A DNA stretch of 61,816 nt, counting the filler, from Nemertoderma westbladi (lineage: Eukaryota > Animalia > Xenacoelomorpha): assembly GCA_032718475.1 (NCBI GenBank). It is 2 parts of 2 records of this genome, joined end to end, with 100 filler letters (N's around TTAATTAATTAA, not from the genome) between each part and the next. Parts side by side here need not be neighbours in the genome. Positions count along the whole stretch, not along the records: positions 1 to 31,625 come from JAUCBJ010003705.1; positions 31,726 to 61,816 come from JAUCBJ010000411.1. One strand, given 5' to 3'. Under the pieces are notes generated by a model. The model had not been told where the DNA came from and searched no databases. It worked only from the letters and a program-made list of their open reading frames with translations. Positions 805 to 51,869 of this stretch are shown here, piece by piece. The position numbers were made by a program, and so were the translations under genes. The stretch's first letter is position 1, and each line of letters begins with the position of its first letter.

Positions 805-1283
805 TGTGACGGGATCTGAGGATCCCGACCGGTTGATTTTAGTTACGCGTCACCGCACGGTTGAGAAAAGAGTTTGTTGTTGTCGTTTCAGTATTGTTAA
901 TAGGGTTGAAATATAGTATACAATATAGAATATGATAGCATGAGATAACTTGGATGTTGTACCGTTAAATTATATATTGATTGGTGACAGCGGTGACGGT
1001 ACTAAAGTGTCACCATACTGTCCTACGTGACTGAGATAACTGACCGGTAAAGTGTGCTATGCTGATAATATATATTGATTATTTCTACACTAGCTTGGCC
1101 TCTGTACCTAGCGGATGCTCTCCTCTCCCATTGGTTGATATACCAATTCTCGGCTCACACCTCTGTGGGAGTGCTTCCCCCCCGCTGCTGTCACTTTCCC
1201 TCTCCAGGAGGCTTAACCTCTGACCTCCCTTTGTGTGGCCCTTTGGGGGTTTGTTGTCCCCGTTATTGGTTGTGTGATACGAG
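805..1283 (-). repeat. 3' LTR of element A (about the first 95 bp of U3 and the PPT are deleted)
   Basis: 805-960 and ~1232-1283 match 20564-20768; the match stops at GATACGAG and runs straight into the 3'-UTR block shared with element B. Confidence 0.88.
1038..1135 (-). promoter_or_regulatory. Putative LTR core promoter: CCAAT box, TATATA, Inr-like TCAGTT
   Basis: Minus strand has CCAAT (~1130-1134), TATATA (~1069-1074) and TCAGTT ~30 nt downstream (1038-1043); same spacing in LTR B (TATA ~9763-9770, TCAGTT 9733-9738). Confidence 0.55.
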
Positions 1284-1994
1284 TGCGCTTCAATTCCGCT
1301 GGAACCCGATCTACTATCGGGTGTGGGGTGGACTTATCTTACTTGGAGTCGGCTTTCCAGTCCGCTCCCTCTGGGTATGATGTTACTACCCTCTCTTGGT
1401 GCAACTCCAACCTATGTTGCACCAAGACATCTGGCATCTCTGTTCGAGACAATTGTGGATTTCTCTCACACAATTTTATCTCCCCACTACTCTCTCCACT
1501 CTAACTCCACTCTGACTGACTCTAACTTCTCCACTCTCACCATGATTCTCCTCTACTTCTCTTCTACCTTCACTCTAATTTTCGGACCCTCTGTCCCTCA
1601 CTCTGCCTCTTACTACTCCCCCCCCCCCCCCACACTTGAATTGCACTCGCATCCTCTCCACGCGTTCTATACTCGATTCATATTCGCTCCTGATGAGCCT
1701 CACCCTCCCCTTCCATGCCGTCGCACTTAAGAAGCATCAAGTGTGTAGTGCTACGTCTAGTCTCCCATCCTCCTGTCATGGTCAATTGGCCCCCAGTCCC
1801 AGTAGCTAATTCGAAAAAAGGTTGCATGACTATAGTACTTACTTTGGTTATATTGGTTATATGATTATATTCTATTCTAATGATTATTACATATGTACAT
1901 ACTAATTGCACTTTTAATTAAATTTGCACTTAGGAGTTCGTATTACTTCACATGTGGTGCCTTCCAGGCATCCCCACATCTCCCCCTCTAAGTT

Positions 1995-4900
1995 CTAGTT
2001 TGCTCCTCCTGACTTTGGTAACCATCTCAGTTCCTTCCCTCTGTCGTCCTCCTCCCTCGGTCGCTTCCTGGTCGTCGCCGCTCCCTTGTTCTTATCCCCT
2101 TTAAGGTTCCTGATCCTTGCCGTCACTTCTCTGCTGATTCCCATCGTTGACTCATTGGGTGCTGGTGTTATTAGCTCCCGGTATCGTTTCGCGGGTGGCC
2201 CCTCCGAATGGCCCTGTTGCTTCCCCCTAGTGGCGTCCCATAGGATCACCTTCATAGCCCGCGGCACATGCTCCGCCAAGAAATCTCTGAACTCTCCCCG
2301 GTTCTGTGGCGTCCACCTGTCTAAATACCTCTGCGTATTTATCACTCTGGCATACGACGCCGCCGTTGACACTTCCTGATAAGTAAACGGAAGTCTCCGT
2401 TTAATGATTTCCAGGTGGGCCTCCTGGTTGATATTAAAGAAGCTCCACCGGAATTCCTGGGCCTTCATCCGCTGCCGGGTCATGGCGCCGACATCGGCCC
2501 ACTCCTCGAAGATCCTAAACTTCTCCTCATCGTCCATCCAGTCGCACTGGCGTCCGTAGTGCCCCCGGAAGTTGCACTTAGAACACCGGTTGTGCAATCG
2601 TGGACACGTCCCCATCCTATGACTCATTCTCGCGGCAGTAGAGGCAACTCGTCCCCTTCTGGAATCGATACAAGCAGCTCCTTTCCTGGTGAGTTTGCCT
2701 CCCGCAGTAATCGCAGCTGAGTACCAATGCCTCCCGCCCCACGTCGTCTTTCGTCCCAAGCGATCTCCTCGGTCTATGGAGTCGCTGGTAAGCGAACTTC
2801 TGGACGTTAGCGTCCCTGTCCACGTCTATCTCCTCACCTCGCCTGGGCATCGTCTCTCCGAAAACTACCCGTGGTGCTGTTCCCGGTTGCTCGCCCAACC
2901 TGATGGTGCTCCCCGCGAAATCCATCGCCGGCTCCTCATGCACCCAGGCCCGCTTGCCGGGTCTATCCCAGAAGGCCCTCGCCCCGCTGGCCGTCACCAC
3001 TCTCCCGCCAACCCAGTCCGTGTCCGAGTGGCCGATTCTCCTGATGGGCAGCATCTCTCCGAACTCGTCGTCATCCTCGTCCTCCTCTGGGAGTGGCTCC
3101 AAACCCGGGATCCTGGTGGATCCACTGTGTCCCTTCCCACCTTGGCTTTCGCCCATGACTCTCCATCCTTCCAGTTCCCCTGTCCTTCTCTCCGCGAAAT
3201 CGCCCTCGGCGCCCGCTGGTATGGGCGTTGTCTGCAATCCCGATGTCGACTGTTTCGGTGATCCCACCGTCCACCCCAATTCTCGCCCTAGAGACTCGCC
3301 CGAACTCCCTGATGTCCAGTGTAGATCGTCTAAGGCCGCCTGTTCCTCGAACCCGTAGCCCTCTCCTCTAGCTTCCGCCTCCCTTTCTTCTGCCTCCCTC
3401 CTTTCTCATCTAGCGATTTCTTCCAATCGCTTCGCCTCTCGTCTATCCGCCTCTAGCTGCTCCCACCTCTGATATGGCGTATCCACCTCCCTGTCTACTA
3501 GATATCGGCAGTTATAATATACCGACTTGCCCTTCAGCCCCGGGTGGTCTACCAGACCCTCGAAAGCCACTTTGAAGGCTCTTCTGTAGTTCAGGGGTGA
3601 TCCCGATAGCAGGAATGCCATTGGTTCTCTCTCGATAACCACGGTCATGAATAGGTTTAGCAAACCTATCATTATCCAGTCCTCCTGCAGGATATATCGC
3701 TTCTGATATATCTTTATCGCTCCTCTCCGGAATTGATACACCTCTTGCTTCCCCGGTCTCGCTCCCCACTTCAGCGAGTTCGTCAACTCCGCTCCGTACT
3801 CCTCCCTGAATTTACCCCAGTCCATTGGCTTGTGGCATACGAGCCCCATTAGCTGGCGGCCATCGCCACCGCTCCACAATGGCCCGCGTTCTCTACTAGT
3901 CCCAAACCGTCTGGCGCTGTCATAGCCATGTAGACCGTTTGCATGTCCAGGAGGTTGGGGGTCTCCGGACCGATGATCCTCTCAGCATCGTCGTGGATCG
4001 CCGATCCCACCTTTATTATTGACTTCTCTCTAACTAGGCTCCGCACCGCCTTTGGCAACCGGTTTAGCTTCGGCCCATTCTTCTTCCCATACGTTCCTAG
4101 ATCGAACAGGAATATATCCCCATTTGGCGCGGCCAAATGCAGGAGTATGGTTCTGGCCGACCTCGCCGACCCTCTTCTCAAACCTTCCTCATCCTCCACG
4201 GTCCCCTCATCGTCTAGGACCATGTATCCTCCCCTGCTGACGGACTCTACGAACCTCTTCCAGTCCTTTCTCGGTGGTTCCTTTGGATACTTCGGTATCC
4301 CGAACTTTCGCCTCGTCTCCCTTTACCACGTAGTGGAAATGCTCGAAGATCGCGTTGTCTAGCGACGGTATCCCGTAGGTCCCGACCAGCCGCTGTTCGT
4401 GCACCTCCCTGAAATGGTCCTGCAGCGCATCGTCGCGGATAGCCGATCCCACCTTTATCGTTGACTTCTCTCTTACTAGGCTCTGCACCGCCTTTGGCAA
4501 CCGGTTTAACTTCGGCCCATTCTTCTTCCCATACGTTCCCAGATCAAACAGGAATATATCCCCATTTGGCGTGGCCAAATGCAGGAGTATGGTTCTGGCC
4601 GACCCCGCCGACCCTCTTCTCGAGCCTTCCTCGTCCTCCACGGTCCCCTCATCGTCTAGGACCATGTATCCTCCCCTGCTGACGGACTCTACGAACCTCT
4701 TCCAGTCCTTTCTCGGTGGTTCCTTTGGATACTTCGGTATCCCGAACTTCGCCTCGTCTCCCTTTACCACATGTGGAAATGCTCGAAGATCGCGTTGTCT
4801 AGCGACGGTGTCCTGTAGGTCCCGACCTGCCGCTGTTTGTGCACCTCCCTGAAATGGTCCTGCAGTGCTCGTGCCTTGTGACCCTTCTCTAACCGCTCAT

Positions 4901-5003
4901 AGTATCCCCTCGTATTCTCTTCCGGATGCCTTTCGGTGAAATCCACCAGTATCTCCTTTCCTCCCAACTCCGCCTTTCTCTTTCTAACAAGTTTCTCCGC
5001 CAT
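1995..5003 (-). pseudogene. Accessory ORF3 of element A: DEDDy-like (WRN/RNase D-type) 3'-5' exonuclease + coiled/acidic linker + triple CCHC zinc knuckle; frameshifted, internally duplicated
   Basis: Joined ORF pieces give ExoI LDDEG, LLHLA..GDIFLFDL, KVGSAIHDDA (ExoII), LLDMQ, QKRYILQED (ExoIII-like), then CDYC..H..C, CLYC..H...CP, CSKCNFRGH..C. Confidence 0.8.
3985..4866. repeat. About 440-bp diverged tandem duplication inside the exonuclease domain
   Basis: ~3985-4426 aligns with ~4427-4866 with scattered substitutions; ORFs 3849..4223 and 4207..4770 encode near-identical peptides. Confidence 0.9.
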
Positions 5004-5489
5004 TTTGAACCCTCCCGATCGCTCAACTATAAGGTGGGGCCTTGCCAAGGCACAATATAAGTGAGTGATGTAGTTAGGATGGTCTGTACGGTCCGATAAT
5101 GGCCTATCTCTGTCTGAAATGCTAGGTTATTGCTTAATTTCCTTACTTTTATTTCCTAAAAGTGCCAAATTTACTAAATTCCCTAATTTTGTCAGTTACT
5201 TTAATTATATTCTAGAATATCTTGCCTACTGTTACCATAATTTGTCTAATTTTTTATTTTTAATATTTATTTAATCCTACAACTGTGCTATCAGTATCTA
5301 CTAATGGATTATTTCTTCTTTTAATCCATATTCTGGCCTACTCTATGGGCTTGTGCAGTACAGTAGTATGTCTCGTGTGGCCTACACGATTTGTCCTGCT
5401 GTACCCACGTGCCCCCCTCTCACTACTCACTACTAACTCTGCTAACTTTCTAACTAATTTCTACTAACTCTTACTAACTCCTACTACTA

Positions 5490-6275
5490 ACGGTACTACA
5501 CGTACCCTCTTACTACCAACTCTTGCTACTAACGGTACTACACATACCCTCTTACTGACTCTTCTACTAATGGTACTACACATACCCTCTTACTAAATCT
5601 TCTACTAACGGTACTACGTACCCTCTTACTAACTAACTCCACTAACTCTTACTAATGGTACTACGTACCCTCTTACTAACTAACTCCACTAACTCTTACT
5701 AACGGTACTATGTACCTTCTTACTAACTAACTCCACTATCTCTTACTAACGGTACTACATACCCTCTTACTAACTAACTCCACTAACTCTTACTAACGGT
5801 GCTACATACCCTCTTACTACTAACTCCACTAACTCTTACTAACGGTACTACATACACTCTTACTAACTAACTCCACTGACTCTTACTAATGGTACTACGT
5901 ACCCTCTTACTAACTAACTCCACTAACTCTTACTAACGGTACTATGTACCTTCTTACTAACTAACTCCACTATCTCTTACTAACGGTACTACATACCCTC
6001 TTACTAACTAACTCCACTAACTCTTACTAACGGTGCTACATACCCTCTTACTACTAACTCCACTAACTCTTACTAACGGTACTACATACACTCTTACTAA
6101 CTAACTCCACTAACTCTTACTAACGGTACTATGTACCCTCTTACTAATAACTCCACTAACTCTTACTAACGGTACTACGTACCCTCTTACTACTAACTAA
6201 CTCTCTAACTAACGGTACTACGTACCCTCTTACTACTAACTAACTATCTAACTAACGGTACTATGTACCCTCTTA
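5490..6275. repeat. About 47-bp minisatellite (~18 units), each with a GGTAC-tac-GTACC hairpin
   Basis: Cores at 5610, 5657, 5704, 5751...; a 5-unit higher-order block is duplicated. Confidence 0.9.
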
Positions 6276-6461
6276 CTACTCTTACTAACTTCTATCTGCC
6301 TACTTACTTACTACTTACCTACTATGTACTATTACTTTCCTTTCTCTTACTCTCTTTCTATTATTTTATTTTTATTTATTTATTTTTTTTTATATTTGTG
6401 TGGGAAGGGCGTCTCGCCCTCAATCCCACCCCCCTCAGTCCAGCACTTGGACAACTAAACT

Positions 6462-8319
6462 CTACGGTGCCCCTTCTAGCAGGCAACATTTGCCTACAGC
6501 CCTCCTGTAGGTCTTCCTGTCTTTCGCTACTATCTTACCCCCTATCCGCACTTCCACCGATCGGACTCTTCCATCCTCGTCGGAGTAAGTGTCCACTATT
6601 CTTGCTAATCTCCATTGATTGTTGATAATGGTGTCGTCCGTGACGATCACCAAATCACCCTTCTTTAACTCTCTAGTGGTATTTCTCCACTTACTCCTCC
6701 TATGTAGCGTGGGTAGGTATTCCTCGACCCACCTCCTCCAGTACTCCGCGCTTATCGCCTTAGCGACTTTCCAACTCTGTCGGGAGTGTATATCGTCTGG
6801 GTCTACACCCCACATGTCGATGGTCGCTGGCCTCTCCAGTAGAAAGTGACTGGGTGTCAGCACATCTAATGATTCTGGGTCATCATTTTCTGGGTATAGC
6901 AGTCTGCTATTAATGATACCCTCGCACTTAGCTAGCACCGTCTTTAGTACATCTTCTGTTACCATGTGGGTGTTCATCAACTTCGTCATCAGATGCTTGG
7001 AACTACCCACGAGTCTCTCGACGCACCCTAAAGTATGCGGAGCATACGGTGTCCTCCTTTCCCACTTCACCTGTCGTCTTCTTATGGCTACCCTGACTTC
7101 CTCCCCTTCCACGATGTCCAAGGCCTCTGCCAGCTCGCTCTCCACCCCCACAAAGTTGGTTCCATTATCGGAGTATATTACCGCGATTGTCCCACCTTTG
7201 CGATCTCTGAACCTCTCTAGGGCATTGATGAATGCCGATGCGGTTGCGTCTTGGGTGAGTTCTATTCCTACCGCCCGTGTGTTATTACATACGAAGATAA
7301 TGCCGTAGCGCTTCTCCGTGTGCCGCATCACCCTGATCTTTATCGGCCCGAACATATCTACACCGCAGTGCGTAAATGGCGGGTCGTGCTGTCTCACCCT
7401 GCTGGCCGGTAATGGTGCCATCTCTTGTACGGCCCGCTCCTTCCTCATCCGTCGGCAGGTCTGGCACTGCCCCACTATCGCCTTCACCTTCTTCCTTAGC
7501 TGTGTGATCCAGAAGGTCCTCCGTATCTCTGTGAGGGTCCGGTTGGTGCCCCCGTGCAATATCGACTTGTGGGAGTCCCAAATGATCTGGTGGACCATCG
7601 GCGACCTATTCGGAATGATGATGGGTTTCGGTGGGATAATGAGGCTGTTGTTATTTAGCACTCTGGAGTTCATTACTAAGATCCCATCGTCATTGAGTTG
7701 TGGCAACAGTGTGATGACCTTGCTGTCCCGTCGAAGATGTTGTTGTTTACCAACGCGCTCCATTTCGTCGCCGTAGTTCTTTCACTGTTCGTAGTGAATC
7801 ACGGCCTTGGCCGCTCCCATTGATGTTTGGTTTCTTCTTGGTGTCTTTGCCGACTCCCTTGAGGAAATCCCCGAAGGCTCTCCAGTACGCCACTAACTTA
7901 TTGGTCTTGTACCAACTTGAGCTGTAGCTGAGGAGTTTGTCCGTTGGGTTATCGCATGGTTCTTCTGGTTTTGGTTGCACGTCCCTGATCTCCCTCACCA
8001 TCTGACTATATATCTCTTCACCTTCTGCGTCTCCTCCCTCTTCCTCTAGTGTTACTTCCTCTGAGCCCGGGTCCACCTTCTTCATCAGTGGCCAGGCTGT
8101 CTTATCGTTCAGGAATTGTGGCCCGTGCTGCCACAATACTTCCTTCTTCAAGAAAGTGTGGCGTGCCATGCCCCTCGATAACAAGTCCGCTGGGTTCTCG
8201 TCCGTTGGGCAGTAGTGCCACCTTTCCAATTCCGTCGTCGCCCTTATTTCGTCCACCCTGTTTGCGACGAATATAGGGTATCTCGTCTTCTCATTATGTA
8301 GCCAACCAAGCACTACCAG
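6462..8319 (-). pseudogene. Element A pol: RNase H C-terminus and integrase (frameshift near 7750-7800)
   Basis: VLGWL, FVANRV, NPADLLSRG; HHCC zinc finger; GVDMFGP, SDNGTNFVG, ERLVG DDE core; W..EYLPTL and D.DGRVRSV C-terminal domain typical of Bel/Pao. Confidence 0.93.
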
Positions 8320-8900
8320 TATGTTCAGTAGTATGTTTCCACTATGTTGGGAATAGCATCCATCAGGTAAGCTGTTTGTTCTTTTTGTATTTACATTATT
8401 TATTTATTTATTTGATTTATTTTACATTACGTACGTACTTACTATATATACATTTTCTTTTTTTTTTATACCGCCCTGACTGGCTTCTTTTTGGACAAAT
8501 TAAGTGTTAATCAATTAGTTATTGGGTATGACTGTTGATAACAATTATAATTAATTACATCGCATTTTCTACCGTGTCCGTTTGAATCTGTATTTGTGTC
8601 TTGTCATTGATCCCGCTTGCATATCATTAGTTTATCATTATTGTTAATCGATTAATTATTATTACTTATGAATCATACACTTATTGTTCTCGTTCCCTAG
8701 TGGTCTGCTGCATGCTATAGTTTGTCACATTGTTCTTGTTATTGTTTTTATGACTGCTTACAAATGTACTGTATTTGTTTGTATCAATGTTGTGTCTTCC
8801 TTACATATATTGTTATGTTACCTGTTTGTATTTTTCTGTTACTTTCTTTCATCAGTCGCTTGTGGAACTTAATTATGTCAATAAACTAATCTAATCTAAT
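8320..8900 (+). mobile_element. Probable 3' end of a non-LTR retroelement inserted in the RNase H of element A
   Basis: AT-rich block interrupting RNase H between ELTAVRLGVRA and LVVLGWL; ends AATAAA-(CTAAT)n; no TSD seen and some host codons appear missing. Confidence 0.55.
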
Positions 8901-9486
8901 CTGGCCCTTACTCCTAATCTAACAGCTGTCAACTCGAGTTTCGGGACCGATGCTGAATCTGGCGGCGTCGACTTTGATTTGCTGAATGCAAGTCTGGGCT
9001 TATGAGCCCCCTCCCGTTGTACTAGGTAGAGTGCCGCTCCGTATGCTTCCAACGACGCATCAGAGAACATGTGTAGATCCAGATTGGTCATGTCCCCATT
9101 CGGGAAATACATGCGTGTCATGCTGTATGTCCAAATCTGTTCTAAACTCTCTGTCCACTTGCTCCACTGCTTGCTGATCTCTTCCGGGACCTCTGTATCC
9201 CACTTGTCCTTTAGCTTATATACTTTCTTAAGTATTTGCTTCCCCATGACTAATAGTAGGGATGCTAGGCCTAGGGGATCGTATTTCCTTGTTATGTACG
9301 ATACATAGCCCCACTTTGTGTGGATGTCCGCGCCCTCTTGGCTCAGTTGGTACTTGAACTCGTCTGTCTCTCGGTCCACACGATCCCTAATTCCTTCTGT
9401 TGGGACTCTACCCTTTTGTTCGCCATGTCCTGTCCCTTGGCTGTCGTGGGATTATCCATGGTCGACTCTGACCTCCTGTCCTCTAT
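8901..9486 (-). pseudogene. Element A pol: RT C-terminus/connection and RNase H N-half
   Basis: KELGIVW/DRETD (frameshift), YDPLGL, LHMFSDASLEAYGA, SVPKLEL; in frame with 17380-17875 once element B is removed. Confidence 0.9.
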
Positions 9487-10048
9487 TGTGACGGGATCCG
9501 AGAGGATCGCGGTTTATCCGGTGTGTTTCGTACGCGTCCCCGCCGTGTGAATGGAAAAGGTAATAATTGTTCTAGTGTCGTTGTCGAACTCTGATACACG
9601 TTGAGATAATAATGATGAGTGATACAGATAGCACAGTAGATAAAGCTAATATACCGGTAATATGGTGACGGTGGCAACGACGGTCTTAACAGTCACCGTA
9701 CTGCCTTACTGTACTGGGATAGCTGACTGAGTAAACTGACTATAATGATTACCGTACAGGTAATATATATTGCACGGGTTTGGCCGTTACAGTACTTAGT
9801 CGATGCTGTCCCCCCATTGGCTAATACCCCTGTTGGCACCCTTTGCCCCCCTCTGAAGTGCTTCCCTTCGCCCTTGCTGTTCTCTCTTGGTTAGGGGTTT
9901 GGCCCCTGACCCCTATTGTGTGTTTCTCCTTCCCTTCCCACTTTATTGGGGCGACACGAGGTTGATATTGGTAATCAACCTCGTGCTCCCAATATTGCTT
10001 AATGGCTCGCTCTATGGGTCTGTGTTAGCGGAATTGGATAAGCTAACA
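9487..10048 (-). repeat. 3' LTR of element B
   Basis: Direct repeat of 16818-17379; I found only three substitutions. Confidence 0.95.
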
Positions 10049-10620
10049 CTCCCCCCCATGCTATCTTCCCGGTAAGAAGATAGCATCCAACTAAAGTGCG
10101 CTACAATTCCGCTGGAACTCGATCTATTATCGGGTGTGGGGTGGAGTTATTTTCTTGGAGTCGGCTTTCCAGGCCGCTCCCTATGGGTATGATGTCACTA
10201 CCCTCTGGCGTCTCGTGTCGGGCCGATCGTGCGCTTCTCTCACACAATTTTTGTTTCCCCAACACTCTCGCCACTCTAACTTCGCTCTCTAACTCAACTC
10301 GCTCTCTCCCCACTCTTACACTCTCCCCACACCTGAATCGCACTCTAACTTCTCGCCAACAGCTCTTCTCACTATCTCCTCTCTACTCTCTGCCACTTTT
10401 TAAGGCCCTGACCTCTAATGCTACCCCTGTGCTATCATACTATATACCTTATCTAACTTACTAACTCTAACTATCTAACTCTACTAACTCTACTCTCTGC
10501 TAACTCTTACTACTTCTAGCTCTAACTAAAGCCTCTAACTTTCCACTAACTCTAACTAGAACTCTCTAACTCCACTACTAAGTCTACTAACTCTTTTCTA
10601 ACTCTAACTAAAATCCTCCA

Positions 10621-11400
10621 TCTACGTGGCGCTTGTGGTGCCCACAACCATTCTACTACTACTTCTAACTAAAATACCCCTCTTACTAACTCTGCCTCTA
10701 TCTACGTGGCGCTAACGGTGCCCACAACCACAACCGGTACTACGTACCCTCTTACTAACTCTACCTCCATCTACGTGGCGCTAACGGTGCCCACAACCAC
10801 AACTGGTACTACGTACCCTCTTACTAACTCTACCTCCATCTACGTGGCGCTAACGGTGCCCACAACCACAACTGGTACTACGTACCCTCTTACTAACTCT
10901 ACCTCCATCTACGTGGCGCTAACGGTGCCCACAACCACAACTGGTACTACGTACCCTCTTACTAACTCTACCTCCATCTACGTGGCGCTAACGGTGCCCA
11001 CAACCACTCTACTTACTACCACCGTCTACGTGGCGCTTGCGGTGCCCACAACCACTCTACTACTAAGACTTCTACTTTGCTACTACCTCTAACTCTACTT
11101 AGTCTACTCCTTTCTACTCTCTACTACCTGGCACCCTGTGTGCCCTCTCTACTACTCTACTCTCTGGCACCCTATGTGCCCTCTCTACTACCTCTAACAC
11201 TCTAACTCTACTACCTGGCACCCTATGTGCCCTCTCTACTACTCTACTCTATCTACATCTCCACCTCAACTAATACCTCTATCTACGTGGCGCTTGCGGT
11301 GCCCACAACCACTCTCTGCTACTACTTTCTACGTGGCGCTTCCGGTGCCCACAAACCCTCTCTTGCTACTTTCTACGTGGCGCTTCCGGTGCCCACAACC
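10621..11400. repeat. 69-bp tandem repeat (4+ copies) plus dispersed hairpin monomers in the 3' UTR of B
   Basis: Unit TCTACGTGGCGCTAACGGTGCCCACAACCACAACTGGTACTACGTACCCTCTTACTAACTCTACCTCCA from 10701; shares GGTACTACGTACCCTCTTACTAACT with the array in A. Confidence 0.9.
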
Positions 11401-11627
11401 CCCCTACTACTCGTGGCATGACAATATGCCACACTCCCTTACCCCGCCGCCTTCTAACTTCTCTACTACTACCTAACTTCTAACTGCTACTTCTTACTAT
11501 CCTCTACTAATTATTATTTAATTATTTTAATTATTTGTTTTTAATTAAATAATTATTTTCTTGTGGGAAGGGCGTCTCGCCCTCATTCCCACCCCCCTCA
11601 GTCCAAAATATTGGACGACTAAACCTC

Positions 11628-16766: not shown

Positions 16767-16817
16767 CTTCGTCTTTAGTAGTCGTCAGTCACAGCTCGGC
16801 AGGCCTAGTGTTAAGAC

Positions 16818-20487: not shown

Positions 20488-20563
20488 CTTGTAACTCTCT
20501 AATGGTGGCTGGCAGTCACAGTTCTGGCAGTTGTCTAGGCTTTGTACTAGGTGACTTTAGTAC

Positions 20564-37131: not shown

Positions 37132-37266
37132 GGCACTCCTTAAATATAGGGCACCCTACTTTTTTTTTCAAAATTTTTTCTATATGTACCGGTAACTATT
37201 TGTTAGGCCTACCTCTGTACTTATATAAATTATTACAATTATTATTATTAGCCTATCGGTTAAACG

Positions 37267-38154: not shown

Positions 38155-38214
38155 CCTATAGATAGGCCTATATTGAATATGTAATAAGGTCTTGGGTCCC
38201 AAGATGGGAATCCC

Positions 38215-38783: not shown

Positions 38784-40025
38784 TGTTCGCGCTTTTGAAG
38801 ACCTTTAGCAGTTTAACCTGCCAAAATTTATATGTCTTTTAGTTAATTAAAACACCTTTAGCATACGACAACAATTTATGCTAATACACAAAACATTAGC
38901 CGAAGTCAGCCCATGCGCGATCATTCACCCGATGGATCTACACCCGGGAGACTGAATTCGGATGCTTAAATTTTATTATTGCAGTGTAAGGTTGCAGTGT
39001 ATACCTACTGTATTATTCGATAGATCGTTAATAATTAATCTCTGACAGATATTATTGGCTTTCGGGAAATATTAACAGTTCCTTTAGGACGTGGCGCTCT
39101 ATCTATTTAAACAGAACTAGGACTTATACTAAACGCAACGATACTGCTTATGATTAAAGTATAAAGCGTATTCTTTAGGAAATACTTTGTTACCAATCAC
39201 AATCATGCACACTATTCTGCCGACCGTCAGTACATTTGATCACACATAAAGAGAGCAGTAATTGACTCATGTAGGGTCTGCTAAATAACATTTGATTCAA
39301 TACACACCACATTAATATAAATCGCAATTGTTATATATAGCCCGCCTCTCTAACCTGTAGTGTATCAAGAAAATTGGGAATTTGGGTGATTTATCCGTAT
39401 TATCCAAAGAGCAATATTTCCATCAACAAATAGGTACAATTAATAACTGACGGTAAAATAACAGTACAAACAATATGATTAATGCAGTTAAATTAAGTGA
39501 GATAGTGAGTTCATTCGATTAGTGAGATTAGTTAGGTAACAGTTTATACTTTCGATAATTTAAGCAGTTTTACTAGAGTTTCTAGAGCCGGTGTTTCTGG
39601 CTTAGACAGCAATAACAACAAAGTATCAAGTAAAAACAGTAAGACTGAACACTCTCCTTATGATCGGCCGAAAAGCTACACGTCGACAGGAAAAATCACT
39701 CTGATTGGCTCAAGCCAAACAAAGAACCATGCGTCCAATGGCTGTTTCCATGTCAGCAACCAGCTGTTAGATGTCGTAATATGAATCATCACGGCTAAGC
39801 TGTGAAAGGTAGTTGGTGCATTGCAGGTTTTTTGCCTTACCATGTCCGCCAAAACACGTATATAGCAGAATGACTTTTATGTCCGTTAAAACACCTGTAA
39901 CGGTACCTTGCGGGCGAGGGGAATATATATACAGTTAGAGAACCTTTTTAGAGTATTCCAGCGCCTGGGGGGAAACTGGATTGCGAAGCAAAAGGGGCCA
40001 GTTATATCCCACAGAAGCTTTTACA
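38784..40025 (-). repeat. 3' LTR of element C
   Basis: Direct repeat of 50641-51869 with few substitutions and small indels. Confidence 0.95.
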
Positions 40026-40103
40026 CCGCTCCCAGAAAATGGGATTTGAGTCTATAAATATACAAAAATCACAGTTTCTAATATACGTAAATACTCTAAA
40101 CAG

Positions 40104-41553
40104 TTAGTCTTTCTTGCGCGGACGGCGTTTACGCAGTTTTTTAAAGCTAGCAAGAGTCCTTTTCTCTTTGGGGCGAGCCACTTTACGAGGAGGGCTATAA
40201 CTCCTGGGTGAAGGGTGCAATATGATTGCATCAGAAGGTATGGGATTGCGATCGGTATATCCGCCGGTCGAAGTACCGGGTTGATTGACATCAACGTCCG
40301 GGGAGAGGGGTCTAACGGCTTTGAGAGCTCGTTTCAAGACAGCCGCTCTTACGGGTCCTTTACGAGTGGTCTGAACGAGGGCCGTGGGTGGACCATAGGC
40401 AGTTAGAAACTTCCTTGGTTTAATGGTTCTTTCCAACTCGCGTTCGCGGGCTCTGTACTCGTAAGGCCGTCGATATACTTCCTGTAACTCAGGGTGTGAG
40501 TTGACAAATAAGTCTCCATAGGCCGGATCTTTACGGATAAAGTTTATTAAGTTATACGAATTGATGTCACTCGGATTAATGCTTCTGAGGAATTTGCGTA
40601 CATATTTGGTTGAAATACATTCTCCAACGCGCTTCAATAGTTCATAACTTGATAGGCGCGATTTCTGCTCGACGGAGGCAAACAAATATGGATGGAACGC
40701 ATAAACTCCTTCGTAGGCGCGTCCAGGATAATAGCGATGGCGTGAATCACAATGTAAATCAGCGTTCGCTTCCCAAGCTCTGATATAACGTAGTACAATC
40801 ATTTCATCTACGCTCTCTAAATCATGGTTAAAAAGGGCAATCGAAACTGGCGCGTCCCTTTAGTTGACAATGGTGACATTGAGTCATAAATTGAGGGCAA
40901 ACCGCAAAAATGTGCAAATTATTAAATCTGCAATACGCGCAATAAATTTCCATCGCCGGTTGTTCGTGGAAATAGGAACAGCGGACGTTTGTGTCCATGG
41001 GCGTAACATGGTCTCTCGATGCGCATAACCGACAACGTTGCCGAGAAACATAGTTGGCATGGCGATAATCGTACGCAGTGAGACACTGTGGACCTTGATA
41101 CCATTCTAGGATGTAATCGTTGTCGCTGTTCCGAGCGCGATAGGCTGAATCTCCTCAGATTCTAGACATATTGGTTCGTCTTCCCAGTCTGTTACGAATA
41201 TAATTTTCGTGATCTATTCTCGTTTTATCGTTACGACGCCGCTGGGTATGATATTTAAATAGAACCATTTCCCTTTCGGTGTCTACATCGTCCGTCTCAT
41301 GTAAATCGATAGGATGGCCGGTAGTTAAGAAGTCCATATACGTACCATTACGATTCGTATAGCGAGCGGTGAATTTTCTATAGTCCGCTTCACGCGTAAG
41401 TTGTTCCTGGGACATCGGCGGTTCGATATAACGACCATCGTCCTCCGTAATAGTCGGATCGGCTTCACCGCGTATCAATCTATCCACAAACGCTTGCAAA
41501 GGTAGAGTATATCGCTCTCTAATACCAAGGTCATCTTCTATCAATTCCGTCAT
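40104..41553 (-). pseudogene. Accessory ORF3 of element C: triple CCHC knuckle protein with basic tail (one TGA, one frameshift)
   Basis: Reading through TGA 41155-41157 gives CRLCASRDH..C, CAYC....H....CP, CHHCQLKGR....C, then WEANADL..SRHR; homologous to the C-terminus of A ORF3. Confidence 0.8.
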
Positions 41554-43169
41554 ATCTGCTATCTGAGTTTATTAATATCAATATGAGTTAATATTTTAGG
41601 CAAGCGGGCGTCGCTGCCCACCAGGCTTTTGCCCCAGGACAGTGGGTTTCTCAGCGCCGATGTACCGCTGTCGCAGTGTTTACGCCAACATGTAGCAACA
41701 GCACGACAACGATAACCGGCACAAGTCCCACCACTGTCCGTCCCAAAGGCTTGAATCCACTTGAGGTTATCTCGGTGGAGTTAGGGCTATTTTACAATTG
41801 CGATTAGCTACTGTAAACACACTTTAGTAGTAACATTCACCTATAAACGCACAAATTCCATACAATCATTACTTACTGCACACATGCATGCCATTTGTCC
41901 GTTAGTCAGTGTCTTCCAGAATGTCACGTTATTACTATGTATCCTTGGATACTAATAGTGCGCTATGTATACTCTTATGCTACGCAATGGGGCAAGCTTT
42001 TATTGGTCCTTTAACTTGTTTCTAATTCTAGCGTGGGTGTTGCCATGGTGACATTATGGAAAACTAGCGGTAGAATTAGGGCAATTCTCATGTATACAGA
42101 TCTGGGATGTTATTTAATAGTAATTCTTTAATTGTCAATATCCTCTTTATGCATGATTTTATAAATTTTATCGGCTATTGACTATATGTTGGAGATTCTC
42201 ACACTCTAGTACACTCAATATGAATCTCCGCTCCCATGATCTATTAATTACTGGAATTTTGGGAATGTTATAAATTGTACAAAATGACAATTTATGAAAT
42301 TCATTTGAATATGAATTTAAATTTATTCCCGTGAATTTTATTATTTGATATTAAATTGACATAAATTTTATTCCAGAGCATATCTGGGGACTTAGGATCC
42401 TTAATTCTATAAAATAGTCCTTCTAAGAATATCGGTAAATACTGCGATATCTTAATTGACTAGAAATTTTGAAGGATCGGGATTTTACAGATTTTAATAA
42501 ATATTAAATTAATATTTAGGATGGGCACCAATTTATTCCAGAACTTGTCTGGGGACGTTAACCACTGATTCTAGAATTTGTCTTTCAAGTATATCGGTGG
42601 GTGCCACGATATCTTAATCGACTAGAATTACAGATGGTCAAAAGTTTAACAGATTTATTTGCGATTTACGCTACTGTTAGAGGGACATCACGCTACTATA
42701 TGTATTATTTGTTATAAGGTAGAAGAGCAATATCGCACGAAGCAATGTCAGTGTGAAGAGGCAAGTCGTCTCCAAGGTCTACCCAGAGCTTGGTTTAGCC
42801 GAGACACGAGGATCTGAACTTTGCATTCCTAATACTCTGCCTACCAATAATACTTAAATATAGTAGTGGCTTTATTGTACTTTAAGAAGTACTGACATGT
42901 CATCTTACTATAGTCTCGCATTTATAATATAATACGGACAGTAAGGAAAGAGAAAATAATTACTTCTTGCCGTCGCACTAAATATATTATAAGTAATTAC
43001 GTAATAAACACTAATATATTGCACTAATTTACTAAATATTCTAAAAATAACCTTTTACTAAATAAAATTAAATAAAAACGATTATAATAACGTACATAAT
43101 AACATTTACATAAATATAAAATAAAAACAAATATAAAATGATATAGTCACACGCCCACTCCACATGCTA

Positions 43170-46100
43170 TCACGTTATGGAGTCCCTAGATATTTGTCGG
43201 ATTAGGGAAGTAGTCGTAGGAAGAGTATCTTGCCTTCCATAGTTTCCGGACAGTTTTCGGTCTCTTTCCAGTAAACATAAACGACTAGCTGGGCGATTGA
43301 GTTGTTGTGTTACTTTCTCCGCTCCCTTGGCCTGTCTAATTTCTGCCGTGGTAAGATGAGGAGGCCATTCTTCTTCTTCTTTACTTAAGGAGTCGGATCC
43401 ACCTAACCAGCCTGGAGTATCTATCAGTTCTTGAGGAGTTGCTCCTCTGGAAGCGATGTCGGCTGGATTAATCGTCCCAAGGCAATGTCTCCATTGATCT
43501 ACATTGGAGTTAACATCGTCATTATCTGAGGAGTATGGTGTTCCCTCAGTTGGATCGTCCACATCACTGCTCTCCACTTCCCATTCCTTTACTTGGTATA
43601 CCTGTTGTTGAGGTAATCTCTCTTTGAGAGTTCTACGGGAAGGGCCAGTGAAGTACCAACCTACTCTAGTTCTTACCGCATAGGTTTGTAGTGGCTGTGG
43701 TTGAGCAGGCCGTTTCTCTAATGGCTCGAGCGCCTCATGCGCGTTTTGGCCGATGAGTATTTGCACTCCAGGATAATCGGTTTGGAATCGAGGTATCTCA
43801 AGATGTTGGATGCACTCGTCCTCGTCCCAGTTATAAGGTTCTGCTTGAGTAGTAGCAAAGTTCTTTATAGCCACCATTTTTACTGACCCTATACCTTGTG
43901 TTCCTAACTTATCCTGGGGGGTGGACAATACACCTACATAGTAATCTGCCGTTAGGGTAGATTTCCAAACCTGCATAATTCCTGACATATTCAATTTAGT
44001 CCGGAACTTGGGTTGTCCAGCAAAGATATCTTCGGCTAGTTCTTGATCGATGAATGTTCCTGTGCTGCCGGAGTCAAGTAGGGCGTTCACTATGTAACTC
44101 TTGTTGGGACCATGAACTCGAACTTGCACTACAGGAAATTCTCTTATTCCTATGTTGGAAGTTGGAACTTTCCAAGATGGTTGTTTGTCAAAAGGAGTTG
44201 GAGTAAACTCGTCAGTGTCCTTTTCATCCGTAAGTGCTCGATACACTGTGGTATTTATTAGATAACAGGATTCGTTGGCATCGGAGAAATCGTCTGTATA
44301 GAATCCTTCCCACTCAGAACCTTGGTCAGTGTCGTTCACATCACTGAATTGGACATGTAGTTCGGGCTCACTTACCTGACTCGGGTTGTCTCGTTCGAAC
44401 TCACTGTGTAACAAGATGTGATGTTTCGCGCCACACTTTGCACACTTTACGTCGGAGTAACAGGTTCGCCGTTGGTGTCCTGATCTGAGGCAATTATAGC
44501 ATAGCCGCTTATTCCACAGGACTGTACGTCTGTCTACAGGGGATTTCTTTAGAAATTCAGCACACGCACTCAAACGGTGGGGCCCGTCGCACAGCGCACA
44601 TTTTGGTTTGATGTTACTCACCTTAACTTGGTTAACGTTCTGCACTCTCGTTCTTTCTTCGGGCTTTCTTCCGTGAATTCTCTTAGGAGACGTAGGAGGA
44701 GTTGTTGTTACCTGTTCTCTCCTGTCACTGGTTCGAGACTTGTATTTACTTACGTCTTTATAGGTCTTGTTGTCATAGTAAGATTTTGCTGTGTCTTTCC
44801 CGCTGTCCTCTTCTTGAGCAGCTTGGCTTTCGCCGTCGTCAGTATAACACACTGGTATTATCCTTCTCCTAGAAACGGGTTTCTCACTTACCTTATTTTC
44901 CGATGTTTTCTCTCTGGACTGCCTTATGAGTTGTAATTTTACTTCACTATCTAAGAAGGACATGAGATCAGCCATGGTAGGACTTCGTCGTTGTTGTTCA
45001 TTCATGTACAACACTTTCTTGTCCCAGCGCGTACATACTCCACCTTTTGGTAAAGTAGAGACTACGGCTCCAATGACCATGGAACTCTGATATTCATGCG
45101 ACTTACCTAACCAGTCCAGTTGTCTACAGATCTCTTGAATCTCATCGGAAAACTCTATAATCTCGCTACTAAGGAAGTGTCGGGGGGCTACTAATTTTGC
45201 ATACAAATACTTAGCTATGTTATCCTTATTACCATACCTGATGTTTAATGTATCCCAAACTTGTCTTAATCCATCTGGATGTCCAATAAACTTTAACGCC
45301 ATTAACTTGGGAGGTCCTTCCAAGCACTTGATGAGGAATCTAAGTTTCTCTCCGTTAGATAGTACAGAGTTCTGTATGCTATCTTTGTAATATTCGTTGA
45401 AAGGTAACCATTTCATCTCATCTCCATTGAATTTGACGATCTCTCCCACTTTGACCGCTTGGCGGGCTTCTGTTCTAGCCATCTGACGCGTAAAGCTTTC
45501 TTGGGCCATCGTGTTATTTAATATCGAATTATCGGTATATAAATTTCTCGGATCATATATAGGTCTATAGGGAATATCATTAATAACAGGTCTATAATCA
45601 CCCTTAATAGGGTTTGCTATAGGAGTTTCAACTTCACTAGCAGTATAGATGCGTGTAGGCTCCACACCTTGCGCATGTAATACTTCAGACCTAACAGGTT
45701 GACACAATGTTACAGGGGGTATTGGTATGCCCTTTTGTATATTGACTAATTTGTCGCATTCTAGCGCGATACTTTGCTGCACTTCCTGCAACTCTGCTCT
45801 ACTTTCCCTCACTGTTCCCTTAAGTTGGTGGACAGTCTCCTGCATCTGTCCTAGCAGGAGATTCATCCCCCGCCGTCCCTCTTCCACCCACTCAACCGCC
45901 GAAGCGGGAGTCGCCAACATAGTAGCGGGCTGACGCGGGACGACGGGAGACAAATTATTGATTTCTCTCTCTGCTATCTGGACAGGGATATTCTCTTGGA
46001 CTGTTCCACCGGGTACAGGCAGTGTAGTACTATGTAAAGGGAATTTAGAGTTAAGCTCTGGAAGTACAGGGGTCTCTAACACAGAAGTGACTTTGGGAAC

Positions 46101-46356
46101 GACAGGCCTAATTATTTCAGGCTCATCAACTATTGTAGGGAGTCTTTCTATTTTAACCACCTGGTCTATGGGTTCTGTACTACCTAAGTTGGTGTTATTT
46201 AGTTGCCTTCTAACAGCTGGAGGCAAATCAGGCAATTTATGACGGTGGGATGTTCTTCCACGTCTGCTTAGACGAGATCTATTTCCTTTGCCTTCAGTAT
46301 CTGTTGTATCTCCTTCATCAGAGGATGTAACGCTTGCGTCCTTCTGGGCTCCTCTC
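43170..46356 (-). pseudogene. Element C gag-protease fused by deletion to an RNase H tail
   Basis: KFNGD, EKLRFLIKCLEG, three knuckles (CALC..H....C; CYNCLRSGH...C; CAKCGAKHH.LLH), ALLDSGST, RTRVGW, then WRHC....NPADIASRG. Confidence 0.9.
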
Positions 46357-47586
46357 TGATGACTCCGAGGCGCACCCATGAGGCGGACGCTGTCCCACCA
46401 CCCTTGGGGCCAGTCCGACTCCGTTTTTATCAGACTGGGCCGGAGGGTAGCCCGATGCTTCCCGGGTTCACTTTTCAATCCCCCGATCACACCGGCACAG
46501 CTCGTCGGTGTAGCCAGATGGTCGGCTACTGTCAACTTACTGTGGCCTGACTGTACATTGAGCCAACTCAGAGAGTCAACCGGCGGGTGGACCAGTCGAT
46601 AGCGATCGAGCATCAAGGTCGCCCTTGAGCCAAACCGACGGTCTTGTCCCAAGCGGGCTTGCGCTACCCACATGGAATATTGACCGTTTTCACCCGCCTC
46701 GCCGGCAGTATTGAGGGGAAGTCGGTTCCGCAAACAATACTGACTAGCTCGAAAGCTAGGAACAAGTAACCACTTACCAGTCACTGTACACGTGTACTCA
46801 ATAGATGCTCACGAAATCAAGTACACTACGGTAAACACAAAATCTGACGCATACCACGCACACACAGAGGACATAATCGGGGAAGACAAAATCGGTGACA
46901 AAATCAGAGGGGACAAAATTGTATCGACTAATAAAAAGTCGAGAGTACTTTATTTTACCGACAGGGTAAAATAACTTTGTGTGCACAAAGTATGCTGGGG
47001 CGCAGTAAAATATGGTCCTACTAATAACCGGCGGCGACTGAACCAACCGGCAAGGTTTCCCACACTCACTCGCAGTGGCCATACATACACTCACGTATAC
47101 CACGTACACACACAAACCACAGATTCCAGAGTATCATTCACTCGGACCACACTACAACACCAACCCCTCCTTGCAGCCGATATTCCGGGTGCCACCTCCA
47201 TTCCAATAGTAGTACCAACAGAATCATCAGAACCTGTCCATTCCGATGCAACACCTCCATTCCAATAGTGCTACCCTGGGAAAAAACACGTTTTGGCAAC
47301 CGATCGGAGACAGTACAGAGTCTGGTCAACTCATACATACCAAACATAGACCTACCACATAAACCACATAAACCACAGATCACACTAAGCCACCACCCCT
47401 ACTGTGTACAGGACTGGCAGTACGGCAACAGGCCGACTAGACGGTACCACGGCACCATGTTAATTCATGGTTCGCAAGACACGAGGGCCTTCAGTAACTC
47501 CCCTGCACTATAAAGACGATTTAACATGCCCCCAGACCCTCACGAGTCCGCCGCCGCCTGTTAGGGACACCCCTATAGAGACCTCA
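46357..47586. mobile_element. Possible solo LTR inserted in the gag of C
   Basis: Imperfect inverted ends TGATGACTC...GAGACCTCA; flanks CCTCTC / CCTCTT; separates the two gag ORFs. Confidence 0.45.
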
Positions 47587-48456
47587 CCTCTTTGGGTATC
47601 CCTGTCTCTTGTAAGTAGTCCGACTTATCAGCTGCATATCACTAGCCGTTATCTGTTTATTTAAGTAATCGTGCTTCTCTTGAAGATTCTCCAACTCTAG
47701 TTGGACCCTTTCTTTAGATGCCCTCCATTCCGCTTCGGCCACTGCTATTGCCGCTGTCTTTCTGTCCTCTATCTGTTTTTTCTTCAACTGTTGTTCCCAT
47801 TCTCTAACGATGCGGATTCTTTCATCAATTTCCTCTCTATTCGCTGCCAACATTTCCACATCTATTGCGTCCAACACAAACTTGGCTCCTTCACTATTGG
47901 GGGAAAGTCCAGACAGTCGTCTCCTCAACTCTTCGTCTCCTAAGAATCGCTGATAGTCGGATAGGTAGATGTCAATGGCGTCTCTAGTTCGCGGCTTCTC
48001 TGCTGCTGTTAATTCGCTTTCCACTTCGCTTTCCACTTGAGAAGAAGTGGCGTCGGTTGATTCTTCATAGGTTGGCCGCTCATCATAAACCGTATCCGCC
48101 ATCTCCGCTCTGCGTTCGGGCGCCCGCTCAACAGCATCCGAACTACTGGAGCTATCGGGCCGCTGAGAACTAGGTTCCTGGCTAGGATGTTGCTGCTGCT
48201 TGACAGCTGCTTCTTGATCCCGCTCGACTTGGGCCCGAGTGCCGGTGATAGACCTACGTTGTTCTACTAGCCTAGGGTCTGACACTACTACTGTAGGGAT
48301 GGCCTTTTTTACAATAGTAGGTGACTTAGACTTGGATCTAGGATGTTCTATACTTGGATCTTGGTCACGGATCCTTTTAATACGCTGTCTAAGTCTAATA
48401 CTCATTCTAACACTTTCTAAGAGACTATCTGACAGTGATTTGGTTGAATCTGACAT
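47587..48456 (-). pseudogene. Probable N-terminal coiled-coil part of element C gag
   Basis: 290-aa charged helical ORF in sense orientation upstream of the gag core. Confidence 0.6.
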
Positions 48457-49821
48457 GTTTGTTTACACAGTTGAATGCCTACGGCTATAAATACAGTTAA
48501 AGTAAGTCTAGTAATTCCGTATCACTGTTAGCCTAATAATTAATTACCGATACTGCTACTCAGTGTAGCGTGATATATATATAATATATTAGAATACCGG
48601 TATGCTTATAATATATAAGTATTATTACAGACTAGATTTGTCACAGAGTACCGGTATATAATATTTAGCACAAATATATATAAATATATAATAGGCCTAT
48701 CGTGAATACCGGTAGACAGCTTACACTTATATTATATATAAGTATAATTATGAACTTGAATTAATTACAGAGTACCGGTATGATTTCAGCTCAAATTTAT
48801 AGAGATAAATATAATAAGCCTATGGTAAATACCGGTATGTCAATTATTTTTAGAATAATTGAATTTCTGAATATTTTTAGGGTTACTTGGTTACTTTAAC
48901 TTACTTTATTACCGTTATTTAAGCAGTAGTCCAACTGATATTGAGACCTAGTTGTTGTATGGCAGGCCTACTATTTATAAATCGTTTGAGTTGATTTATA
49001 ATAGATATACACCCGTTTAAATGGGTTTTTGTCAATATTCGAAATAAATGTTATTATTTCTGGGGGAGTCACTACACAGAAGCTGAACGCCTCTCAGTGA
49101 AGTGCTATTTATTTGACACTAAAACTGATAATTCTAATTTACCTAAGTTACTTAATTACTACAAATTACTTACGATACGGGTGAGATTAATTCTCTAGTT
49201 AAACACAACAAAAATATTACGTACGAAATTTTTAGGGTAATTTTACAGGAAGTCTACAGACCAGCCTAACAAAGGGTTAGAATTCTGGTTATTACAACGG
49301 ACAGGGTACTACGGTATTTGAAATAATAGGTAGTAAATATATTGTACTGTCCAGATAGGAAAATACCACCGCCTGACGACCTATAACCGTATCGCTATAG
49401 GTACTACGTTATGTATCACGGATTGTTCCTACCCAGAAGCTAATAGAGCTAACGAATGTGCCTATCAACCACTTTACAACACAAATATACTGCCTACACT
49501 AATTACTTCGGAAAGCACTGTACACTAAACCCTAAATTAGGTACAAGTACCGGTATAACAAATAATCAGTAGTTAAATATACTTGAACAGTTAAAAGAAC
49601 CACGGCATCTGCTGGAGTGACCGAAGCACAAAGTCACCAGTCTTTACCTACGCCGAGCAGCCCTGATGTAGTACCGGGGTTAGTTTAACTATAACGGTAT
49701 GTATAACAAGCACAATTACTGTAGGAATAAACTTGGGGACATGAATGTTGCGAATAATCGCATAAACTCTGAATAATAAATATTACGCTACCCGTACAGA
49801 ATACTCAAACAAATACAAACC

Positions 49822-50290
49822 AAACGCTGGCAAACTACTATCAAGCCTAAACAAACTACAGTATGTGCAGATTCTGAAACTGTTAGTTAGTATGCGTTCT
49901 AGCACGGTAGTACGACTTATTCTTTAAGAGGGGATTGACCTTACCGCATATGGCTGCCCCAACTTACTAACGGCACTTTATCAGACCAACTCTACACACG
50001 CAGCAATCCCTTCAGGCCTAAGAATAGCTAGACAACAATCCAGCCTACAAAATATTTGAGTAATAACTATTACGGTACCTGAACAGACCACACAAACAAA
50101 CACAGGCTAAAACACTGGCAGACTACGATCAAGCCTAAATAAACTACAGTATATGCAGACTCTGAAACTGTTAGTTAGTATGCGTTCTAACACGGTAGTA
50201 CGACTTATTCTTTAAGAGGGGATTGACCTTACCGCATATGGCTGCCCCAACTTACTAACGGCACTTTATCAGACAAACTCTACACACGCC
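49822..50290. repeat. Two copies of a ~170-bp block (spacing ~290 bp) in the 5' leader of C
   Basis: TCTGAAACTGTTAGTTAGTATGCG...GGCACTTTATCAGAC occurs twice. Confidence 0.85.
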
Positions 50291-50640
50291 GTAATCTCTC
50301 CAAACTCAACACAGTCAGACAGCAGTTCAGCCTACAATTATTTGAACAATCTGAGCAGACTTACACGTCTTCAGCTCAATATTAACTTACTAGGAAATAA
50401 AACCGACAGAAATAAGTAAGCTCCAAAAGAAACAAGGGGTGTACAGTCCCTAATCTCTTAAACAGCCTACCGGTATACAATAATCAAAATCGAATAATAC
50501 TAAATGTACTTGTACAGCAGTACCGGTACCGGTGATGACAGTTAGGCCTACTGACCTACAGAAGTACCGGTTCAGTTTTACCAGTCACTACGGTATTTTG
50601 CAACCTTATTGCCTACTGCAATAAGATTATAAACTGTTAC

Positions 50641-51869
50641 TGTTCGCGCTTTTGAAGACCTTTAGCAGTTTAACCTGCCAAAATTTATATGTCTTTTAGT
50701 TAATTAAAACACCTTTAGCATACGACAACAATTTATGCTAATACACAAAACATTAGCCGAAGTCAGCCCATGCGCGATCATTCACCCGATGGATCTACAC
50801 CCGGGAGACTGAATTCGGATGCTTAAATTTTATTATTGCAGTGTAAGGTTGCAGTGTATACCTACTGTATTATTCGATAGATCGTTAATAAATAATCTCT
50901 GACAGATATTATTGGCTTTCGGGAAATATTAACAGTTCCTTTAGGACGTGGCGCTCTATCTATTTAAACAGAACTAGGACTTATACTAAACGCAACGATA
51001 CTGCTTATGATTAAAGTATAAAGCGTATTCTTTAGGAAATACTTTGTTACCAATCACAATCATGCACACTATTCTGCCGACCGTCAGTAATTGACTCATG
51101 TAGGGTCTGCTAAATAACATTAGATTCAATACACACCACATTAATATAAATCGCAATTGTTATATATAGCCCGCCTCTCTAACCTGTAGTGTATCAAGAA
51201 AATTGGGAATTTGGGTGATTTATCCATATTATCCAAAGAGCAATATTTCCATCAACAAATAGGTACAATTAATAACTGACGGTAAAATAACAGTACAAAC
51301 AATATGATTAATGCAGTTAAATTAAGTGAGATAGTTTTTTTCGATTAGATTAGATAGTTCGATTAGTGAGATTAGTTAGGTAACAGTTTATACTTTCGAT
51401 AATTTAAGCAGTTTTACTAGAGTTTCTAGAGCCGGTGTTTCTGGCTTAGACAGCAATAACAACAAAGTATCAAGAAAAAACAGTAAGACTGAACACTCTC
51501 CTTATGATCGGCCGAAAAGCTACACGTCGACAGGAAAAATCACTCTGATTGGCTCAAGCCAAACAAAGAACCATGCGTCCAATGGCTGTTTCCATGTCAG
51601 CAACCAGCTGTTAGATGTCGTAATATGAATCATCACGGCTAAGCTGTGAAAGGTAGTTGGTGCATTGCAGGTTTTTTGCCTTACCATGTCCGCCAAAACA
51701 CGTATATAGCAGAATGACTTTTATGTCCGTTAAAACACCTGTAACGGTACCTTGCGGGCGAGGGGAATATATATACAGTTAGAGAACCTTTTTAGAGTAT
51801 TCCAGCGCCTGGGGGGAAACTGGATTGCGAAGCAAAAGGGGCCAGTTATATCCCACAGAAGCTTTTACA
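50641..51869 (-). repeat. 5' LTR of element C
   Basis: Direct repeat of 38784-40025. Confidence 0.95.

Follow-up and report, generated by a model that had tools for sequence, protein, structure and literature searches.

Candidate self-priming from an internal LTR segment in Bel/Pao retrotransposons of Nemertoderma westbladi

In Tf1, a Ty3/gypsy chromovirus, the RNA's first 11 bases pair with the primer binding site (PBS); RNase H cleaves after base 11 (PMC7175516). The pairing is set in a structure of three duplexes (bioRxiv 2022.12.06.519325), and in about half of the cDNA a copy of the PBS remains at the 3′ end (PMC11042837). Such self-priming is described for Tf1/sushi elements and predicted for Tcn1 and for the TAR lineage of copia (PMC6317226, PMC4600332, PMC2864245), in the case of TAR by the criterion of at least 10 nt complementary to the long terminal repeat (LTR), starting 0–5 nt after the LTR (PMC6317226). 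Belpaoviridae are officially described as tRNA-primed, their profile from the international virus taxonomy committee (ICTV) giving an 18-nt PBS for tRNA-Arg or tRNA-Gly (PMC8742986), and word searches of two Bel/Pao surveys found neither PBS nor tRNA (PMC3118150, PMC554778). Here we analyzed three Bel/Pao elements, named A, B and C, in a 61,816-nt stretch of Nemertoderma westbladi DNA (GCA_032718475.1; hereafter the window) that joins JAUCBJ010003705.1 and JAUCBJ010000411.1. In each of them the segment following the 5′ LTR is complementary to the element's own LTR, and the elements likely prime minus-strand DNA with their own RNA and not with a tRNA.

The minus strand carries all three elements, with their LTRs, PBSs, genes and open reading frames: A at 805–20862, B at 9487–17379 nested in the pol gene of A, and C at 38784–51869, inserted in a long interspersed nuclear element (LINE). 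Each is flanked by 5-bp target site duplications (TSDs) and has TG..CA LTR ends. By their proteins they are Bel/Pao (Belpaoviridae): Pfam matches comprise reverse transcriptase (RT), Peptidase_A17, integrase and DUF5641 in A and a DUF1759 gag without pol domains in B and C, and the chromodomain sought as a mark of Ty3/gypsy chromovirus proteins had no match in the Pfam scan of A, B and C. With tRNA-primed Belpaoviridae they share the domain set and order, the LTRs, the polypurine tract (PPT; clear in B, short in C, deleted in A), the Pao peptidase A17, DUF1759 and DUF5641, but they have no such tRNA PBS; since the placement rests on proteins, this absence marks a variant of the family. A preliminary description of this DNA had cited self-priming as known for Tf1/sushi-type Ty3/Gypsy elements; it is also predicted outside that superfamily, for copia TAR (PMC6317226). 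Like Tf1, Tf2 and Tj1, the elements of the window lack a tRNA site, have a PBS complementary to their own LTR RNA and a U5 hairpin, and would need a cut 3′ of the duplex (PMC7175516, bioRxiv 2022.12.06.519325, PMC4600332). They differ from Tf1 in superfamily and in the position of the primer, which comprises the first 11 nt of the RNA in Tf1 and has its predicted end 43–111 nt inside the RNA, behind a long 5′ tail, in A, B and C.

Complementarity between PBS and LTR

TGG is absent from the first 10 nt after each 5′ LTR. In A, the 10-nt PBS (20554–20563) pairs with LTR positions 999–1008, and a 4-nt extension at 20550–20553 pairs with 1011–1014 after a 2-nt bulge. The PBS of B (16809–16817, 9 nt) pairs with 17014–17022 and with the second LTR copy at 9683–9691, and that of C (50628–50640, 13 nt) with 51380–51392 and 39536–39548; both adjoin the terminal CA of the LTR. 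The lack of TGG and these pairing coordinates, already reported in the preliminary description, held on recheck, as did its statement that each duplex ends at the terminal CA with the next base mismatched: each match begins immediately behind CA, and every duplex is followed by a C, a base unable to pair with the last A of the LTR. By the TAR rule, A and C pass and B falls short by one nucleotide; the reasoning is of the same kind as for TAR and Tcn1, which are plant elements of other superfamilies (TAR being Ty1/copia).

Dinucleotide shuffles of the own LTR reached the match in 2/5000 cases for A, 5/5000 for B and 0/5000 for C, and in 5/2000, 28/2000 and 1/2000 cases, respectively, when the start was allowed to slip by 0–5 nt. 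The PBSs of A, B and C match the LTRs of the other two elements over 3–5 nt only. In a strict cross control over 552 PBS–LTR pairs from 24 elements, a single pair reached 9 nt and none 10, and under liberal rules, with offsets and splice junctions, 18 of the 552 pairs reached 9 nt, two of these from one family. Because three of these 18 involve the PBS of B, its 9 nt are weak evidence when taken alone.

The candidate primer 3′ end of A, hereafter the partner (999–1008), takes up 10 of the 11 bases in the loop of a hairpin whose arms are 992–997 and 1009–1014, and that of B stands at the top of the homologous hairpin. In both elements the partner directly follows the same GGTGAC, and although four of the nine PBS positions differ between A and B, all four are paired, so the earlier claim that the partners lie at homologous places and have changed on both sides is borne out. 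The three matches originally assigned to three families all hold; A and B are, however, one clade, which leaves two independent lineages and one covariation pair, not three independent cases. The second lineage is distant, the gag of C having 23% identity to that of B, yet its PBS/partner layout is alike. The partner of A survives only in its 3′ LTR. That of B is spanned without substitutions by contigs of three samples (records 9, 19 and 26, compared for substitutions), and no variant at a PBS or partner is found among the 40 host-contig variant rows listed out of 966, a sample that proves nothing.

Splice-dependent PBS pairing, tested for A, B and C, was not found in any of them; in C an AG precedes the partner, and position 51685 has a donor-like word. 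Terminal inverted repeats were considered as a source of the matches and rejected, the partners lying 275–478 nt inside the LTRs. Rfam gave 0 matches and no ribozyme, and no relatives were found among viral contigs. A sister contig shares the first seven bases of the PBS of A and then diverges (window position 20557).

TGG and self-matching in outside Bel/Pao elements

Three scans yielded 106 outside Bel/Pao loci, the metagenome scan having kept 80 of 566. Most loci had no usable LTR pair, and 21 elements were tested after near-duplicates (L032, L082, L092, L098) and ambiguous cases (L055, L106) had been left out. In 16 elements the LTR end was fixed by two copies (in L018 and L038 by 55-nt overlaps, in L095 at a contig end). 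Nine of the 16 have TGG within 0–7 nt, and none of these has a self-match longer than 6 nt; seven have no TGG, and six of them match their own LTR over 10–15 nt. The match is contiguous in L004 and, in the other five, runs across a predicted GT[AG]AG..AG junction in the LTR, introns and splice junctions of the outside elements being sequence predictions. Five further elements without TGG also match across a junction, and these count less because their LTR ends were chosen after sequence inspection. As with A and B, one pair differs in concert, the exon ends of L097 and L099 reading CAC and TAA and their PBSs GTG and TTA. The LTR end and the PBS are separated by 0–7 nt across the 21 tested elements, ten of the 14 elements with a self-match have C as the base after the duplex, and in A, L097, L099 and L100 some additional pairs come after a bulge.

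The splice-junction elements resemble A, B and C in lacking TGG and in a duplex of 10–15 nt, and differ in that the partner is contiguous in A, B, C and L004, a layout that would let the unspliced genome RNA act as its own primer. In the five spliced elements for which a TATA could be located, the partner spans a predicted exon junction 30–202 nt from TATA+30.

In an integrase tree of 20 rows (L013, L014 and L099 being too short), the outside self-matching elements together with L053 form one branch (99/99). Forcing A into this clade was not rejected by an approximately unbiased (AU) test (p 0.13), which does not by itself show that A joins it, and an RT tree left the placement of A unresolved. 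Self-matching may have had one or two origins. What appears new in the window is a lineage on a long branch whose candidate primer is free of introns and presented in a loop, together with a DEDDy-like extra gene in A that might trim the primer.

Some side observations concern the outside set. PBS matches that exist only at predicted exon–exon junctions are exemplified by L081:2079-2790, L095:1851-2260, L038, L097 and L099. At L053:135-345, the post-LTR bases are complementary to the LTR start, and the true end of that LTR may lie further on. L004–L016 and L097–L106 are animal-type Bel/Pao in bacterial-labelled records, including a Wolbachia chromosome, and likely reflect host contamination.

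Proposed priming route and competing explanations

A motif scan places the predicted promoter of A at 1038–1134, with CCAAT at 1134, TATATA at 1074 and an initiator-like TCAGTT at 1043, homologous to the arrangement in B (CCAAT 17151, TATATA 17100, initiator-like 17070); the order is common to both, and the A of TCAGT follows TATA by 33 nt in A and 32 nt in B. Transcription would start at this TCAGT, 32–33 nt after TATA, and the start of C is less sure (initiator-like 51492, CCAAT 51552). Counted from these motif-predicted starts, the partner occupies +34 to +43 in A, +47 to +55 in B and +99 to +111 in C, while an alternative TATATA at 51775 would place the partner of C further in. The promoter motifs would thereby place the primer 33–98 nt downstream of the start and its candidate 3′ end about 43–111 nt inside the RNA. 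The partner, which in A and B sits within or next to the loop of a hairpin, would anneal to the PBS of the same or a co-packaged RNA, and the RNA would be cut or trimmed directly after the last pair (AC followed by C in all three). RT, supplied in trans for B and C, could then extend directly into the terminal CA without a spacer; the 3′ R region would serve to restore the first 43–111 nt of the RNA. In LTR elements, the primer is copied into the PBS during plus-strand synthesis. By the same established scheme, plus-strand synthesis here would copy the last bases of the primer back into the PBS, and this copying would itself yield matched changes of PBS and partner.

If the primer is internal and carries a long 5′ tail, the question arises which nuclease makes its 3′ end. 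The preliminary description held that release would need a different step than in Tf1; this does not follow, because the start sites are only predicted and one cut 3′ of the duplex would suffice, leaving a longer primer. RNase H, as in Tf1, is the most likely nuclease and has a somewhat better than even chance of making this end; a transcript that is short or processed and acts in trans is a distinctly less probable source, and exonucleolytic trimming a slightly less probable one again. Trimming was considered on account of a broken DEDDy-like extra gene located after pol in A (1995–5126), which comprises a piece resembling a DEDDy 3′–5′ exonuclease and two weak zinc knuckles. The piece at 3849–4322 resembles DNA_pol_A_exo1 clusters (0.95 for the top Atlas match, with 191 features in common and the family present on 40% of members) and is partly duplicated at 4426–4749, within a 442-bp internal duplication at 3985–4872. 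Pfam and PDB sequence searches with it gave no match, no homologue among longer proteins was found at E 0.01, and its predicted model (pLDDT 36.7) was too poor for a fold search. No relative of it occurs in the 106 outside loci, so the exonuclease is not a general requirement. The bdelloid LTR retrotransposons Juno and Vesta carry a DEDDy ORF3, likewise an exonuclease-like gene after pol; they belong to other lineages, and the accessible parts of the report do not tie ORF3 to priming (PMC5408684). A second degraded fragment of this kind lies at 36964–37107 on the plus strand (31% identity to the piece in A, E 1e-4), just before an ISXO2-like transposase open reading frame (ORF) at 37264–38154.

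Self-priming, proposed in the preliminary description, is well supported, as an inference, by the A/B covariation and by the division between TGG and non-TGG elements outside. Also in its favour are the position of the exact matches next to CA, the like layout in distant C, the recent copying of B, the concerted difference between L097 and L099 and the PBS copy kept by Tf1 cDNA. Several observations weigh against it. None of the three copies is autonomous, all being defective, and the covariation within the window rests on two sequences, A and B. In predicted folds, the PBS–partner duplex of B has a probability of 0.17 and lies 1.7 kcal/mol above the minimum, and that of C has a probability of about 0 and lies 4.1 kcal/mol above it. 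Neither AATAAA nor ATTAAA occurs downstream of the partner in A and B, so that the R overlap required by the model is unproven. Extra pairing between the 5′ part of the RNA and the leader is borderline (19, 26 and 12 of 500 shuffles), and single leader words are reached in 543, 641 and 72 of 1000 shuffles for A, B and C. Outside the window, L053 has neither TGG nor a self-match, and A forms a long branch outside the self-matching clade in the free integrase tree.

A rival reading is a structural or regulatory helix between LTR and leader, serving packaging, dimerization or a translation switch, with another RNA, bound here or nearby, as the true primer. The partner competes with a local hairpin, forcing the pairing has the cost just given for B and C, and C has two further 10-nt leader–U5 matches, its words at 50833–50842 and 50844–50853 being the complement of leader sequence right behind the PBS (72 of 1000 shuffles for one). 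Nothing in such a helix would call for a duplex that begins right behind CA in A, B and C alike, or for its absence from all nine TGG elements, and another primer site is not evident; we consider it unlikely. The three-duplex pretzel of Tf1 is not evident in A and B, and the leader–U5 matches of C resemble one of its arms. A leader word of B (16785–16791), also present in the leader of A, is complementary to LTR 17055–17061 near the predicted RNA start and is not significant alone. On the side of self-priming, a terminal U5 hairpin is present in all three elements, with shuffles as good in 9, 0 and 12 of 300 cases for A, B and C. Tf1 reportedly needs a U5-IR-like structure, to go by the title of work by Lin and Levin from 1998.

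Self-priming could also take the exact form seen in Tf1, if a second start site put the partner at the RNA 5′ end. The start sites are predictions, and relatives of Tf1 start at the self-primer (bioRxiv 2022.12.06.519325). Against this special case, whose weight is part of that given to self-priming as a whole, CCAAT, TATA and TCAGT have an order and spacing common to A and B, 33–46 nt before the partner, and the junction partners of the five spliced outside elements lie 30–202 nt from TATA+30, which leaves it a shade less credible than the structural helix.

Priming by a host half-tRNA or other small RNA, with the LTR match secondary, has a precedent in copia lineages (PMC6317226), and the tRNA genes at hand for comparison numbered 0 in the window and one in the outside loci. 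It is nevertheless improbable, because each differing PBS would need its own host RNA plus a chance match in the own LTR, and A and B have altered both sides together. Chance, or an artefact of defective copies, deserves hardly any weight: the 9 nt of B are within reach of loose shuffles and its PBS matches three foreign LTRs over 9–11 nt, but all three elements match, at a homologous position and with changes on both sides, and the three-sample contigs leave the partner of B without substitutions.

If self-priming is true for A, B and C, it would extend to a third LTR superfamily, would make the elements independent of tRNA supply and let them escape silencing by tRNA fragments at the PBS, and would explain Bel/Pao copies annotated without a PBS. 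No report of Bel/Pao self-priming was found in the accessible literature; supplements, Repbase, GyDB and subscription journals were outside the search, and a prior note may exist. As far as searched, this is probably a known mechanism in a family for which its use had no prior report. A broader scenario is doubtful, namely that much of Belpaoviridae dropped tRNA priming, with an internal self-primer that is spliced in one clade and contiguous and loop-presented here, where an own DEDDy exonuclease would trim a co-packaged LTR transcript as far as the PBS duplex and so make the 3′-OH. B, non-autonomous yet with promoter, partner, PBS and PPT intact and belonging to a very abundant clade, suits RNA end mapping.

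Anatomy of the elements and neighbouring features

The 5′ LTR of A (20564–20862) has lost by internal deletion the part equivalent to about 961–1230, and with it promoter and partner. Its 3′ LTR (805–1283; TSD 800–804 = 20863–20867) lacks the first ~94 nt and the adjoining PPT and is the sole copy of the promoter and partner of A. The RT piece (17343–17936) is split by B, and the 3′ part of pol (6462–9451) carries Peptidase_A17 at 8891–9451 and integrase with H2C2, rve and DUF5641 at 6462–7781 (Pfam). A gag core and protease, looked for upstream of RT, were not found. The first ORF of A (19510–20313) continues past the stretch it has in common with B; the additional part, about 130 aa long, includes several Cys and His and has no Pfam match.

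B has a 562-nt 5′ LTR (16818–17379) with a terminal U5 hairpin, and its 3′ LTR (9487–10048; TSD 9482–9486 = 17380–17384) adjoins a clear PPT at 10049–10057. Gag (DUF1759) and aspartic protease are kept at 11628–14081 (Pfam), and RT, RNase H and integrase were not found in B. Its two LTRs are mismatched at 3/562 positions, which, with TSD and PPT present, points to a recent copying event in which B carried this PBS. Host DNA contigs contain many and varied members of the A/B clade.

The LTRs of C, at 50641–51869 (5′, 1229 nt) and 38784–40025 (3′; TSD 38779–38783 = 51870–51874), differ by eight bases and two gaps, and its PPT is short. The region 43170–46808 comprises gag (DUF1759), with zinc knuckles and a protease-like region recognized by eye, and a short pol remnant; RT and integrase were not found in C. 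Two ORFs of C have no Pfam match, one at 40104–40859 just before the 3′ LTR and the other at 47584–48462 upstream of gag.

Non-coding and gag regions of A and B contain tandem arrays with units of 47, 69, 120 and 60 nt, at 5415–6320, 10609–11400 and 14891–15459. The two elements also have in common a conserved block located after pol (6359–6460 with 11512–11624). An inverted repeat pair at 21675–22034 and 34863–35209 (360 nt, 83% identity) possibly represents the ends of a DNA transposon.

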